A stretch of 64,000 bases of DNA from Escherichia coli (lineage in GTDB: Bacteria > Pseudomonadota > Gammaproteobacteria > Enterobacterales > Enterobacteriaceae). Shown here in pieces: positions 3,335 through 9,849 of this stretch. The translations under genes and the position numbers were made by a program. The stretch lies in assembly GCF_013122565.1 (NCBI RefSeq), contig NZ_CP053258.1, one strand, 5' to 3'. Below the pieces are notes generated by a model that worked only from the letters and a program-made list of their open reading frames with translations, made no database searches and was not told the DNA's origin. Numbering within the stretch: the first letter of the stretch is position 1; each line of letters starts with the position of its first letter.

Positions 3335-6011
3335 CGAACCCTTACGTCCCGACCCCGACCGTCTGCTGGAACAAACTGCCGCGCCGCATCGGGGGAAGCT
3401 GAAAGTTTTCTTCGGTGCCTGTGCAGGCGTCGGGAAGACCTGGGCGATGCTGGCAGAAGCCCAGCGACTGCGGGCGCAAGGGCTGGATATTGTGGTTGGC
3501 GTGGTAGAAACCCACGGGCGAAAAGATACCGCCGCCATGCTGGAAGGGCTGGCTGTTCTGCCGTTAAAACGCCAGGCGTACCGTGGGCGGCATATCAGCG
3601 AGTTTGATCTCGATGCCGCCCTCGCCCGCCGCCCGGCGCTGATCTTAATGGACGAACTGGCGCACAGTAATGCGCCAGGTTCTCGTCATCCTAAACGCTG
3701 GCAGGATATCGAAGAACTGCTGGAAGCTGGCATTGATGTTTTCACAACCGTCAACGTTCAGCATCTGGAAAGTCTGAATGATGTGGTCAGCGGCGTCACC
3801 GGAATTCAGGTACGGGAAACCGTGCCCGATCCTTTTTTCGATGCCGCCGACGACGTGGTTCTGGTGGACTTGCCCCCGGACGATCTGCGCCAGCGGCTGA
3901 AAGAAGGCAAAGTCTATATTGCCGGGCAGGCGGAGCGCGCCATTGAACATTTTTTCCGCAAAGGCAATCTGATCGCCCTGCGCGAACTGGCACTGCGCCG
4001 TACTGCTGATCGCGTTGATGAGCAAATGCGCGCCTGGCGGGGGCATCCTGGCGAAGAGAAAGTGTGGCACACGCGCGACGCGATCCTTTTATGCATCGGC
4101 CATAACACCGGCAGCGAAAAACTGGTCCGCGCAGCGGCGCGGCTGGCGTCACGGCTGGGTAGCGTCTGGCACGCGGTGTATGTTGAAACCCCTGCCCTGC
4201 ATCGCTTACCGGAGAAAAAACGTCGGGCAATTCTCAGCGCCTTACGTCTGGCGCAGGAGCTGGGCGCGGAGACGGCAACACTTTCTGATCCAGCGGAAGA
4301 GAAAGCGGTAGTGCGTTATGCCCGTGAACATAATCTCGGCAAGATTATTCTCGGTCGCCCAGCCTCGCGCCGCTGGTGGCGTCGGGAAACGTTTGCTGAC
4401 CGACTGGCGCGCATCGCTCCCGATCTCGATCAGGTGCTGGTCGCGCTTGATGAACCACCCGTCCGCACGATTAACAACGCGCCGGATAGCCGCTCTTTTA
4501 AAGACAAGTGGCGGGTACAGATTCAGGGATGCGTGGTTGCCGCCGCGTTATGCGCCGTTATCACCTTAATTGCTATGCAGTGGCTGATGGCGTTTGATGC
4601 CGCCAACCTGGTGATGCTGTATCTGCTTGGCGTGGTGGTGGTCGCGCTATTTTATGGACGCTGGCCTTCGGTGGTTGCTACCGTCATTAATGTGGTGAGT
4701 TTCGATCTCTTTTTTATCGCCCCACGCGGCACGCTCGCCGTCTCTGATGTGCAATATCTGCTGACCTTCGCGGTGATGTTAACCGTCGGGCTGGTGATCG
4801 GGAACCTTACTGCGGGTGTGCGTTATCAGGCGCGGGTAGCCCGTTACCGCGAGCAACGCACACGGCACTTATATGAAATGTCGAAAGCTCTGGCGGTGGG
4901 CCGCAGTTCGCAGGACATCGCCGCCACCAGCGAACAATTTATTGCCTCCACGTTTCATGCCCGCAGTCAGGTGTTGTTGCCCGATGACAACGGTAAATTG
5001 CAGCCGTTAACACATCCGCAAGGAATGACGCCGTGGGACGATGCCATCGCGCAGTGGAGTTTTGATAAAGGCCTGCCTGCGGGTGCGGGCACCGACACGT
5101 TACCCGGCGTGCCGTACCAGATTTTGCCGTTAAAAAGCGGTGAGAAAACCTACGGGCTGGTGGTGGTGGAACCGGGGAATCTGCGTCAGTTGATGATCCC
5201 GGAACAGCAGCGCCTGCTGGAGACGTTTACGCTGTTAGTCGCCAATGCGCTTGAGCGGCTGACGCTGACCGCCAGCGAAGAACAGGCGCGGATGGCAAGC
5301 GAACGGGAACAGATCCGCAACGCCCTGCTGGCGGCGCTTTCGCATGATTTACGCACTCCGCTTACGGTGCTGTTCGGTCAGGCAGAAATCTTAACGCTCG
5401 ATCTGGCAAGCGAAGGATCGCCCCACGCCCGCCAGGCCAGCGAGATCCGTCAGCACGTGCTGAACACTACCCGACTGGTGAATAATCTACTGGATATGGC
5501 GCGAATTCAGTCCGGCGGCTTTAATTTGAAGAAAGAGTGGTTAACGCTGGAAGAAGTAGTCGGCAGCGCGCTGCAAATGCTGGAACCGGGTTTATCGTCG
5601 CCCATCAATCTTTCTCTGCCAGAACCGCTGACCTTAATCCACGTTGACGGGCCACTCTTTGAACGGGTGCTGATTAATCTGCTGGAGAACGCGGTGAAAT
5701 ACGCGGGTGCGCAGGCCGAAATTGGGATCGATGCCCACGTTGAGGGCGAAAATCTACAACTGGATGTCTGGGATAACGGCCCCGGTCTTCCGCCAGGCCA
5801 GGAGCAGACGATATTTGATAAGTTTGCTCGCGGGAATAAAGAGTCGGCAGTACCGGGGGTAGGGCTTGGGCTGGCAATTTGTCGGGCGATAGTGGATGTA
5901 CACGGGGGCACTATTACCGCGTTCAACCGACCGGAAGGTGGTGCCTGTTTTCGTGTTACACTTCCCCAGCAAACCGCTCCTGAACTTGAAGACTTTCATG
6001 AGGATATGTGA
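3327..6011 (+). CDS. kdpD: Sensor histidine kinase KdpD
   Basis: 894 aa from ATG 3327 ([16 protein letters not shown]...); N-terminal KdpD domain with P-loop GACAGVGKT, four TM helices, C-terminal HisKA/HATPase; overlaps kdpC end. Confidence 0.93.
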
Positions 6012-6685
6012 CAAACGTTCTGATTGTTGAAGATGAACAGGCTATTCGTCGCTTTCTGCGCACGGCGCTGGAGGGCGACGGTATGCGCGTCTTTGAGGCC
6101 GAAACGCTGCAACGCGGCTTGCTGGAAGCGGCAACCCGTAAGCCAGATTTGATTATTCTCGATCTCGGCCTGCCCGACGGTGATGGGATTGAGTTTATCC
6201 GCGACCTGCGCCAGTGGAGCGCGGTGCCGGTGATTGTGCTTTCCGCACGCAGCGAAGAGAGCGACAAAATCGCCGCGCTGGATGCCGGAGCGGATGATTA
6301 TCTGAGTAAGCCGTTTGGCATTGGCGAATTGCAGGCCCGTCTGCGCGTCGCATTACGCCGCCACTCTGCCACCACCGCGCCCGATCCGCTGGTGAAATTT
6401 TCCGATGTTACCGTCGATTTAGCCGCCCGCGTGATCCATCGCGGTGAGGAAGAGGTGCATCTCACCCCGATTGAGTTTCGCCTGCTGGCAGTGCTGCTCA
6501 ACAACGCCGGAAAAGTACTCACCCAGCGCCAGTTACTCAATCAGGTGTGGGGGCCAAACGCGGTCGAACACAGTCACTATTTGCGTATTTATATGGGACA
6601 TCTGCGACAAAAACTGGAACAGGATCCCACTCGCCCCCGCCATTTCATTACTGAAACCGGTATTGGGTATCGGTTTATGCTTTGA
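6008..6685 (+). CDS. kdpE: Response regulator KdpE (OmpR family)
   Basis: 225 aa, receiver domain plus winged-helix; GTG start overlapping kdpD stop (ATGTGA). Confidence 0.93.
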   Translation: MTNVLIVEDEQAIRRFLRTALEGDGMRVFEAETLQRGLLEAATRKPDLIILDLGLPDGDGIEFIRDLRQWSAVPVIVLSARSEESDKIAALDAGADDYLSKPFGIGELQARLRVALRRHSATTAPDPLVKFSDVTVDLAARVIHRGEEEVHLTPIEFRLLAVLLNNAGKVLTQRQLLNQVWGPNAVEHSHYLRIYMGHLRQKLEQDPTRPRHFITETGIGYRFML

Positions 6686-6808
6686 AAAAAGTGGCAATGT
6701 ATGGATAAAGTCATTTTTTATTCAAATATAAGGAACTTAATATTTAAAAAATGTTCCATACAATTCCTCATCATAAATGACACCGTAGCACACAAGGAGC
6801 AAGTAGCG

Positions 6809-7459
6809 ATGCGTGAAATAAATCAGTTAGTAAATACTGAAGATTCAGCCTGGCCAATAATCCAGAACTGGTTAAAAGACGCCACAAACCATACCGAACT
6901 CTTACCGGTTAATAAAGATTTAGCCGAAACCGCACTTTATCAATTACAGGTGACAACAAAATCACCGATGGGTGCGCTTGTCTATGGCTCCGGAGGTCTA
7001 CTGATTGATAATGGTTGGTTACGCATAGCAGGCTCTGGTCACCCCCGGTTGCCACGAGATCCAGTAAGTTGGACACAACGCCCTGAATTCGCAGGCGTGC
7101 GGGCTTTACCCATCGCTGACGATGTCGCAGGGGGAATTTTTGCTCTTAATGGTGGCGATCTTGGGGAAGATACTGGCTGCGTTTATTATTTTGCGCCAGA
7201 TACGCTGAATTGGGAAAGTCTGGAAGTTGGATATTCTGAGTTTCTTCAGTGGGCATTATCCGGTGATTTAGATACCTTCTATGAAAATGTACGATGGCAG
7301 CAATGGCGAGAAGACGTAATAAAATTATCGGCAACGGAAGCCTTCACGTTCTACCCTTTCTTATGGGTACAAAGTGAAGAAGCAAGAACAAGAAAAGTTA
7401 TTTCGCTTACTGAACTCTGGGAAATGCAGTATCAAATGAAAGAAACATTCACTCAATAA
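6809..7459 (+). CDS. ybfG: Hypothetical protein, YbfG-like (DUF2625-type); apparently intact
   Basis: 216 aa from ATG 6809 preceded by AGGAG; the track ORF extends upstream to 6701 through AT-rich sequence with no RBS; position between kdpE and ybfP. Confidence 0.6.
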   Translation: MREINQLVNTEDSAWPIIQNWLKDATNHTELLPVNKDLAETALYQLQVTTKSPMGALVYGSGGLLIDNGWLRIAGSGHPRLPRDPVSWTQRPEFAGVRALPIADDVAGGIFALNGGDLGEDTGCVYYFAPDTLNWESLEVGYSEFLQWALSGDLDTFYENVRWQQWREDVIKLSATEAFTFYPFLWVQSEEARTRKVISLTELWEMQYQMKETFTQ

Positions 7460-7499: not shown

Positions 7500-7994
7500 T
7501 TAATGTGTGTTTATCGCTTTCAATTCTTGCTGGCATTTTTCTGACTGGCAGCGTCGCAACTCAATAATCCCGACATGCATCATCGAGCCAAAAAATCCGC
7601 TTTCGCTGACATAATCCTCATTGACTATCGGTCGAGTGCCGGGCTTGCCCTGGCAAACCCGCATAAAAAATGAGGTGTAGCATTGCCAACCGGGATTTAA
7701 ACCGACCTTTTCTTGTGCTGACATATCGTGAAGATAAGTAAGTTCTTTTTCGTTCCCGCCTGACAACTGCCAGCTGCGGGTATTATCAGGTAAGTTATCG
7801 CCACGGCAATTTGTCTTACACCGGGAAGGTGCAATATTTACCGCAATGCTACCCGTTAATCCTCTGGTTTTATCTTTAGGGGTCAGTAACCAGTCGCCAG
7901 CTAATGATGATTGTTCAGGTTGGGCGCATGCAGTCAGCAGTAATGTGGCGGTAATTAGTGACACTATGACGACCAGACTCCTGTTGGTCTTCAT
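7500..7994 (-). CDS. ybfP: Putative lipoprotein YbfP
   Basis: 164 aa; N-terminal signal peptide with lipobox LLLTAC. Confidence 0.8.
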   Translation of the reverse strand: MKTNRSLVVIVSLITATLLLTACAQPEQSSLAGDWLLTPKDKTRGLTGSIAVNIAPSRCKTNCRGDNLPDNTRSWQLSGGNEKELTYLHDMSAQEKVGLNPGWQCYTSFFMRVCQGKPGTRPIVNEDYVSESGFFGSMMHVGIIELRRCQSEKCQQELKAINTH

Positions 7995-8044
7995 TGGGAT
8001 TTCCTTGAGCTACTCAGTTTGTTGACAAAGTGTTCGTTGTTTTT

Positions 8045-8078
8045 GCCGGATGCGGCGTGAACGCCTTATCCGGCCTAC
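8045..8078. repeat. REP element (gccggatgcggcgtgaacgccttatccggcctac)
   Basis: Matches REP consensus; forms a BIME with the inverted copy at 8114-8142. Confidence 0.85.
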
Positions 8079-8113
8079 AAAATCGCGTAAATTCAATATA
8101 TTGCACCATCCTC

Positions 8114-8142
8114 GTAGGCCTGATAAGCGTAGCGCATCAGGC
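8114..8142. repeat. REP element, inverted copy (gtaggcctgataagcgtagcgcatcaggc)
   Basis: Reverse complement contains ATCAGGCCTAC; REP consensus. Confidence 0.85.
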
Positions 8143-8163
8143 AATTCTGTGTTTGTCATACGT

Positions 8164-8208: not shown

Positions 8209-9849
8209 TTACGCGTTTTTCAGAACTTCACTAACAATCTCAACCGCTTCTTTCTCGATCTGCTTGCGATGTTCTTCACCGAGGAAGCTTTCGCAATAAA
8301 TCTTGTACGCGTCTTCCGTGCCTGACGGACGCGCGGCGAACCAGCCGTTGTCAGTCATCACTTTCAGACCGCCGATAGAAGCACCGTTGCCCGGTGCCGC
8401 CGTCAGGCGCGCGGTGATCGGGTCGCCTGCCAGGGTGCTGGCGCTCACCATTTCCGGAGACAGCTTAGACAGCGCCGCTTTTTGTGCGGAAGTCGCAGCT
8501 GCCTGCAAACGGTTGTAGCTCGGCGCACCAAAGCGTTTTGCCAGTTCGTTGTAGTGTTCCTGCGGATTCTTACCGGTGACAGCGGTGATTTCCGCCGCCA
8601 GCAGACACATGATGATGCCGTCTTTGTCGGTGGACCATGGCGTGCCGTCGAAACGCAGGAAGGAAGCCCCTGCGCTCTCTTCGCCGCCAAAGCCGAAGCT
8701 GCCGTCGAACAGACCATCAACAAACCATTTGAAACCTACCGGGACTTCTACCAGCTTACGGCCCAAGTCATTGACCACACGGTCGATCATCGCAGAAGAA
8801 ACCAGCGTTTTACCGACAGCAACATCTTTGCCCCACTGCGGACGATGCTGGAACAGGTAGTTGATCGCCACCGCCAGGTAGTGGTTCGGATTCATCAAAC
8901 CTGCCGGAGTGACGATACCGTGACGGTCATAATCCGGGTCGTTAGCAAACGCCAGATCGAACTTATCACGCAGTGCCAGCAGGCCCGCCATCGCACACTC
9001 GGAGGAGCAGTCCATACGGATCGCGCCGTCTTTATCAAGGTGCATAAAGCGGAACGTTTGATCGACCTGATCGTTAACGATAGTCAGGTTGAGGTTGTAA
9101 TACTCGCCAATACGCTTCCAGTATTCGATACCGGAACCGCCCAGCGGATCAACGCCAAGCGTCAGGCCCGCCTTCTGAATCGCCGCCATATCAACGATAT
9201 CGGCCAGCCCTTCCACGAACGGCTGCACCAGATCCTGCTCTTTCACATGACCGGATGCCATCGCTTCGTCGAGGGAGATACGCTTCACGCCTTTCAGGCC
9301 ATCGGCCAGCAGTGCGTTGGCACGATCTTCCACCACTTTAGTGACGTTGGTATCAGCCGGGCCACCATTTGGCGGATTGTACTTGATACCACCATCTTCC
9401 GGCGGGTTATGGGACGGTGTAATCACGATACCGTCTGCCAGCGGGCCACCTTTTTTATTGTGAACCAGGATGGCATTGGAAACGGCAGGCGTCGGGGTGA
9501 AGCCATTGTTTTCCTGCACAATAACATCTACGCCGTTCGCTGCCAGCACTTCCAGAACGGAAATAAATGCAGGTTCGGACAGGGCGTGAGTATCTTTACC
9601 CACATAGCAAGGGCCAGTGATGCCGTTTTTCGCACGTTCTTCAGCAATTGCCTGAGCGATCGCCAGAATGTGCGGCTCGTTAAAGCTGTGGCGCGCTGCA
9701 CTGCCACGGTGACCGGAAGTACCGAATTTCACCGCGTGCTCCGCATTCCCTGCTTCTGGTTTCAGTACATAATATTGCGCCGTCAGTTGGGCGACGTTAA
9801 TCAAATCACTCTGTTGTGCAGGTTGGCCTGCACGATTGTGGATTGCCAT
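8209..9849 (-). CDS. pgm: Phosphoglucomutase
   Basis: 546 aa from ATG ([16 protein letters not shown]...); phosphohexomutase active-site motif TPSHNP; the track ORF is extended 17 codons upstream. Confidence 0.95.

Follow-up and report, generated by a model that had tools for sequence, protein, structure and literature searches.

The E. coli DNA analyzed here, a stretch of 64 kb (referred to as the window), genuinely lacks the speFL-speF-potE module at its usual position, and this absence represents an ordinary strain-level polymorphism. In its place, kdpE is joined to ybfG, and the junction is, judged by its bases, the product of homologous recombination between the 3' end of kdpE and ybfI, a relic of kdpE. 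While loss of speF-potE is already known and common in E. coli, the seamless kdpE-ybfG form is rare.

The kdpE-ybfG locus and the absence of speFL-speF-potE

In the window, the end of kdpA is followed by kdpB, kdpC, kdpD and kdpE, all on the plus strand. kdpE (6008-6685, plus strand) starts with GTG, overlapping the end of kdpD as in K-12, and ends with a TGA stop codon (6683-6685). It encodes an intact response regulator of the KdpDE two-component system; this protein is full length (225 aa), is encoded downstream of kdpD, carries a receiver domain and a winged-helix Trans_reg_C domain and shows 99.1% identity to KdpE of E. coli C. A database entry for the identical protein lists Pfam PF00072 and PF00486.

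The next gene, ybfG (6809-7459, plus strand), encodes an intact 216-aa DUF2625 protein (Pfam PF10946 on the exact protein), and its ATG start is preceded, 9 nt upstream, by the Shine-Dalgarno sequence AAGGAG. At the protein level, YbfG shares 99.5% identity with the DUF2625 gene product of E. coli C and 99% with the ybfG locus of K-12. Starting from an in-frame ATG at 6701, ybfG would be 36 codons longer, giving a mechanical 252-aa ORF that spans the spacer; the start of the 216-aa form, with its good Shine-Dalgarno sequence, is the one chosen by the RefSeq annotators in both CUWW10 and E. coli C. ybfG is intact in the window and in most E. coli; the K-12 copy (L017 3948-4598) has an in-frame stop at codon 70 (W70*) and is therefore annotated as a pseudogene. 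On the opposite strand, ybfP (7500-7994, minus strand) is a 164-aa lipoprotein gene, named as lipoprotein YbfP in the K-12 annotation, with 97.6% identity to YbfP of E. coli C. A REP/BIME repeat (approximately 8031-8146, no strand assigned), which adjoins the kdpE stop codon directly in genomes with a kdpE-pgm layout, separates ybfP from pgm, and because of this element similarity searches returned dozens of matching places per genome. pgm (8209-9849, minus strand; 99.8% protein identity) is the right-hand anchor of the variable kdpE-pgm interval and is followed by seqA, ybfF, ybfE and fldA; from here to the end of the window the order is colinear with K-12 and the genes are intact.

An earlier note on this DNA had described kdpE as followed by ybfG across an AT-rich gap of about 120 bp. 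The coordinates bear this out, as kdpE ends at 6685, ybfG starts at 6809 and the spacer between them (6686-6808, plus strand) has 123 bp and 31% G+C (30.9%, vs. 51.3% for the whole window). A promoter and terminator scan of this spacer gave weak consensus matches alone, at numbers no higher than in shuffled sequence, and revealed no terminator-like site from kdpE to ybfG. The note had also placed speFL-speF-potE between these two genes on the K-12 map, which agrees with the annotated order in K-12 MG1655 (i.e., kdpE, speFL, speF, potE, the pseudogenes ybfI and ybfG, ybfP and pgm); the order from kdpE to pgm in E. coli C is the same. The absence of speF-potE without a remnant could likewise be confirmed, as neither SpeF and PotE (tblastn) nor the entire 4.2 kb that separate kdpE from ybfI in E. 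coli C (blastn) had a match anywhere in the 64-kb window. Finally, the gene-content difference was correctly taken to be one between strains. At a cut-off for presence of at least 80% of speF-potE, 5,038 of 5,426 complete E. coli genomes have the operon and 388 (approximately 7%) fall below the cut-off. No relocated speF-potE was seen among the complete genomes examined, with a median of one place per genome. Identity bands of the speF-potE operon (E. coli C, L002 5405-8919) extend down to 90-95% in 1,864 complete E. coli genomes; the operon is more divergent than its flanking genes, suggesting distinct operon allele classes.

The ybfI relic and the hybrid junction

ybfI was found to be a degenerate copy of the 3'-terminal 144 bp of kdpE. 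When translated, it reads IRQM*GLNAIEHSNYLRNYMGHLRQKLEQDPARPRHFITETGIGYRFML, which aligns with the C-terminus of KdpE, and its DNA is 89.6% identical to the kdpE 3' end of the window (6542-6685, plus strand) and approximately 90% identical to kdpE of E. coli C. Since ybfI copies the end of kdpE, the speFL-speF-potE segment is flanked by direct repeats in ordinary E. coli. The 144-bp repeat, approximately 90% identical between its copies, flanks the segment in K-12, E. coli C, L003, L009 and L011, and the second copy lies 4,335 bp downstream of the first in K-12, E. coli C, L003 and L011. This relic explains the seamless junction of the window. A literature search for ybfI together with kdpE found nothing.

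Exactly one copy of the repeat is present in the window, and this copy is a hybrid with the left part of kdpE and the right flank of ybfI. Compared to ybfI, the window has 15 differences in 6542-6646 (15/105), all of which agree with kdpE alleles, and is then identical to ybfI and the ybfI-ybfG spacer over at least 6647-6819 (0/173), a step in divergence with a Fisher p of 2e-7. The spacer 6686-6808 is, accordingly, the sequence that lies between ybfI and ybfG in ordinary E. coli; it is 100% identical to this sequence in E. coli C, K-12, L003 and L011, and is unrelated to the kdpE-speFL spacer that is normally found 3' of kdpE. The last kdpE-specific base is 6646, and the flanks of ybfI and of native kdpE first differ at 6687. 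Given the divergence step and the absence of the native kdpE flank (the speFL upstream region), the join can be placed within 6647-6686 (plus strand), a 40-bp block that is identical between the kdpE allele of the window and ybfI. The length of this block is due to a single base; window kdpE reads GGG at 6665-6667, with G at 6667 where K-12 has C, and its last 40 bp (6647-6686) are thus identical to ybfI, making up the longest perfect block, as compared to 29 bp for the K-12 kdpE allele.

The missing length equals the repeat spacing (4,335 bp), and with this offset the flanks align colinearly and without gaps to the left and to the right. kdpE and the ybfI flank together explain each base of the junction, kdpE is left at full length and there is no foreign DNA. 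What is directly shown is that the segment is absent and how long it is, that relatives carry the repeats and that the junction is a hybrid. An IS-mediated deletion was considered and rejected, as the junction has no IS1 end; a search for the IS1 inverted repeat, allowing up to 3 mismatches, found none in the 64-kb window.

As the repeats flank the segment in relatives and the part of the genome examined amounts to 64 kb, an assembly artefact, in which the repeats were collapsed and the 4.3-kb segment dropped, or a location of speF-potE elsewhere in the genome, was also weighed, and we consider either most improbable. The repeats are only approximately 90% identical and their longest perfect block, at 40 bp, is too short to mislead standard assemblers. 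In addition, the Logan assembly of SRR11451224, which may come from the same reads, is identical to the window across the junction (8,069 bp), and CUWW10, a finished genome, has the same layout. Relocation, for its part, was not encountered in any complete genome examined.

Layouts of the kdpE-pgm interval and the history of the locus

At least four layouts of the kdpE-pgm interval are found across Escherichia and relatives, which are here termed form A (kdpE-speFL-speF-potE-ybfI-ybfG-ybfP-pgm), form B (kdpE-BIME-pgm), form C (kdpE-ybfG-ybfP-pgm) and form D (kdpE-speF-potE-pgm). Form B, with kdpE directly beside pgm, accounts for 354 of the 388 complete E. coli genomes that lack speF-potE. In this form, kdpE ends with TAG, the BIME and pgm terminator follow within approximately 15 bp, and ybfI, ybfG and ybfP are absent; the E. 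coli form B junction is homologous to that of E. whittamii and of another Escherichia species representative. Downstream of kdpE, 80 Enterobacterales species representatives showed either kdpE-pgm or kdpE-speF-potE-pgm, the latter group including E. albertii, Enterobacter and some Citrobacter, so the interval is a long-standing variable spot. One form B contig, L015 (5686-8004; ERR1937349), has an internal kdpD deletion, with a product of 772 aa as compared to 894 aa.

Form C, the layout of the window, is rare and was found in one complete genome (CUWW10), one SRA assembly (SRR11451224, matching the window at every base over 8,069 bp) and two metagenome contigs (L102 and L104), which have the same junction, yet carry other kdpE alleles. 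As the alleles and backgrounds of CUWW10, L102 and L104 differ, the clean junction has arisen more than once. L102 also lacks 252 bp inside ybfG (around 883-884 of the contig, equivalent to 6817-7068 of the window). Two further candidates were rejected, namely the metagenome contig L103, which fits the junction pattern, yet starts inside the repeat and looks like ybfI upstream, as another form C, and E. coli KL53, an IS1-associated deletion with the native kdpE flank kept, as another case of the clean junction.

The window appears to represent a rarely sampled E. coli lineage. Over its whole length (1-64000), it is 98.0-98.4% identical to the best of the 5,426 complete E. coli genomes, yet colinear, and its exact KdpD and YbfP proteins occur in one public sample alone, SRR11451224. 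Across kdpCDE, the window shares approximately 94% identity with the Escherichia representative L018, 92% with E. whittamii and 91% with E. albertii. A Shigella origin, suggested by the best identity to E. coli of about 98%, was rejected as unlikely, given that no IS1 end occurs in the 64-kb window, that its genes are intact and in K-12 order, and that one public sample alone shares its KdpD and YbfP alleles. L098, an assembly with the sequence of the window, has ybfA directly followed by ybgA and phr (4464-5683); rhsC, which lies between them in K-12, is absent.

We consider it most likely, with moderate confidence, that a form A ancestor lost the module through recombination between kdpE and ybfI; the direction of this change is one that we infer. 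In such an ancestor, a 4,335-bp segment, bounded by the kdpE stop and the 3' end of ybfI, would have lain between two direct repeats, and a crossover between these, located inside the 40-bp perfect block 6647-6686, would have removed the segment and left one hybrid copy, consisting of an intact kdpE and the ybfI-ybfG spacer. This could have happened by either of two routes. One is a simple intrachromosomal deletion. In the other, a kdpD-kdpE tract entering from a form B-type strain would have paired on its right with the resident ybfI, not with the resident kdpE, so that everything between the tract and ybfI was replaced, which would still be a loss. A suitable progenitor is plausible, as form A genomes with the GGG kdpE allele exist (L009 and L012). 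The exact YbfG protein of the window also occurs in form A contigs, as does its exact KdpE protein.

Speaking against loss, no close relative, of form A or otherwise, was found beyond the one identical SRA assembly, and the nearest kdpDE tract was found in form B drafts. A 2-kb tract (4644-6683), comprising the 3' end of kdpD and kdpE, is 99.8% identical to three drafts with the kdpE-pgm layout, L010, L015 and L016, a match which could mean that the lineage may never have had speF-potE. A form B ancestor, which itself never had the module, might thus have gained ybfG-ybfP from an ordinary E. coli donor, with the left crossover between the resident kdpE 3' end and the donor ybfI and the right one in or beyond pgm; the same junction would result with no loss. 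We regard this course of events, both the gain by a form B ancestor and the crossovers that it entails, as unlikely, although several observations are consistent with it. Compared to these drafts, the tract shows 4 mismatches in 2,040 bp, none of them in the last 937 bp, and none of 5,416 matching complete genomes exceeds 98.4% identity to it. Form B is, moreover, well represented (354 complete E. coli genomes, E. whittamii and another Escherichia species representative), and identity to ordinary E. coli is higher for ybfG-ybfP (99.1%) than for the kdp genes (97.8-98.2%). On the other hand, the similarity between the window and L010 is a mosaic on the kdp side and ends at the junction on the pgm side; the near-identity of L010 stops at its own junction, with 22 mismatches in the first 470 bp of BIME-pgm, and outside the 2-kb tract L010 is only 98.5-98.8% identical, so it does not belong to the same lineage. 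CUWW10, in addition, shows the same junction arising by simple loss from form A. To the left of 4644, divergence from the form B drafts alternates in blocks between near zero and approximately 2.8%, a mosaic typical of recombination imports.

The composite locus of E. coli (form A) itself has the appearance of a fusion between a kdpE-speF-potE-pgm and a kdpE-ybfG-ybfP-pgm chromosome. This reading is suggested by two elements of ordinary E. coli (L002 8900-9010 and L020 14845-14935 compared), (i) the potE hairpin GGGCGATTGAATGATCGCCC, which matches the terminator shared by potE and pgm in E. albertii, and (ii) a REP-like core, GCCGCATCCGGC, directly before ybfI. It raises the question of whether the window keeps the ancient kdpE-ybfG-ybfP-pgm arrangement as one parent of the composite locus, with ybfI as the stump of the parental kdpE that was left when kdpE-speF-potE was joined in front. 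The existence of ybfI implies such a parent, form A resembles form D, as found in E. albertii, joined to form C, with the match in the potE terminator, and the window comes from a rare, divergent lineage. Nevertheless, retention of the ancient arrangement, stump included, is very improbable and is largely refuted by the divergence step at 6646/6647, since the kdpE end of the window should then be orthologous to ybfI, yet 15 of 105 positions differ beside 173 identical bp. The window also has ordinary kdpE bases where ybfI agrees with the non-coli Escherichia L018, and the other carriers of the layout (CUWW10, L102 and L104) have different, ordinary backgrounds.

In a broader version, the window would stem from a rare E. 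coli lineage that branched off deeply and was always without speF-potE, with a layout descended from the arrangement that, on fusion with a kdpE-speF-potE-pgm chromosome, gave the composite locus, ybfI included, of nearly all E. coli. We think this version improbable. If true, the kdpE-pgm interval would be a traceable hotspot at which an acid-stress polyamine module was swapped in and out across the Enterobacteriaceae.

Predicted consequences and comparison with known systems

From pathway knowledge, we infer that the strain lacks SpeF, the ornithine decarboxylase that is induced by low pH and ornithine, along with the SpeFL leader peptide and the putrescine/ornithine antiporter PotE; the Kdp system for potassium is intact. 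The predicted lack could slightly alter acid tolerance and polyamine export. As a matter of speculation, ybfG may now be read through from kdpDE, the potE terminator having been lost with the segment. A 2026 study (PMC13322260) reported speF among the metabolic genes that are most often inactivated or pseudogenised across the E. coli pangenome, and the loss itself is thus not surprising. The added value of the present locus is mechanistic, in that ybfI may act as a standing recombination substrate for a seamless and recurrent excision of speFL-speF-potE, in which kdpE is regenerated intact.

Compared to K-12 and E. coli C (form A), the window has the same order and orientation of the flanking genes, a 100% identical spacer upstream of ybfG and gap-free flanks; it differs by lacking the 4,335 bp that extend from the kdpE stop through ybfI and, as compared to K-12, by an intact ybfG in place of one with a stop at codon 70. 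Form B genomes, which include the 354 complete E. coli genomes, E. whittamii and many Citrobacter, Pantoea and Serratia, share with the window the absence of speFL-speF-potE, but have no ybfI, ybfG or ybfP and show a TAG kdpE stop followed by the BIME. The window is not of this form, as its kdpE stop is TGA and is followed by the spacer, ybfG and ybfP, with the BIME 1.35 kb further on. In the IS1-associated losses of E. coli KL53 and ET846, speF-potE is also missing between kdpE and ybfG, but these genomes carry an IS1 at the junction, have kept the native kdpE flank and have a 5'-truncated ybfG, whereas the window has no IS1 end.

CUWW10 (NZ_CP182145.1), the sole complete genome among the 5,426 with a clean kdpE-ybfG junction, has the same gene order, the same spacer and an intact kdpE. 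It differs from the window in that its kdpE allele has kept GGC (the K-12 type at the 6667 site), which places its breakpoint at 6668-6686, i.e., within the last 19 bp, and in that it carries K-12-like alleles on both sides of the junction, with 98.3% identity to the window over 12 kb. Because both the breakpoint and the kdpE allele differ, the junctions of CUWW10 and the window are the products of independent events.
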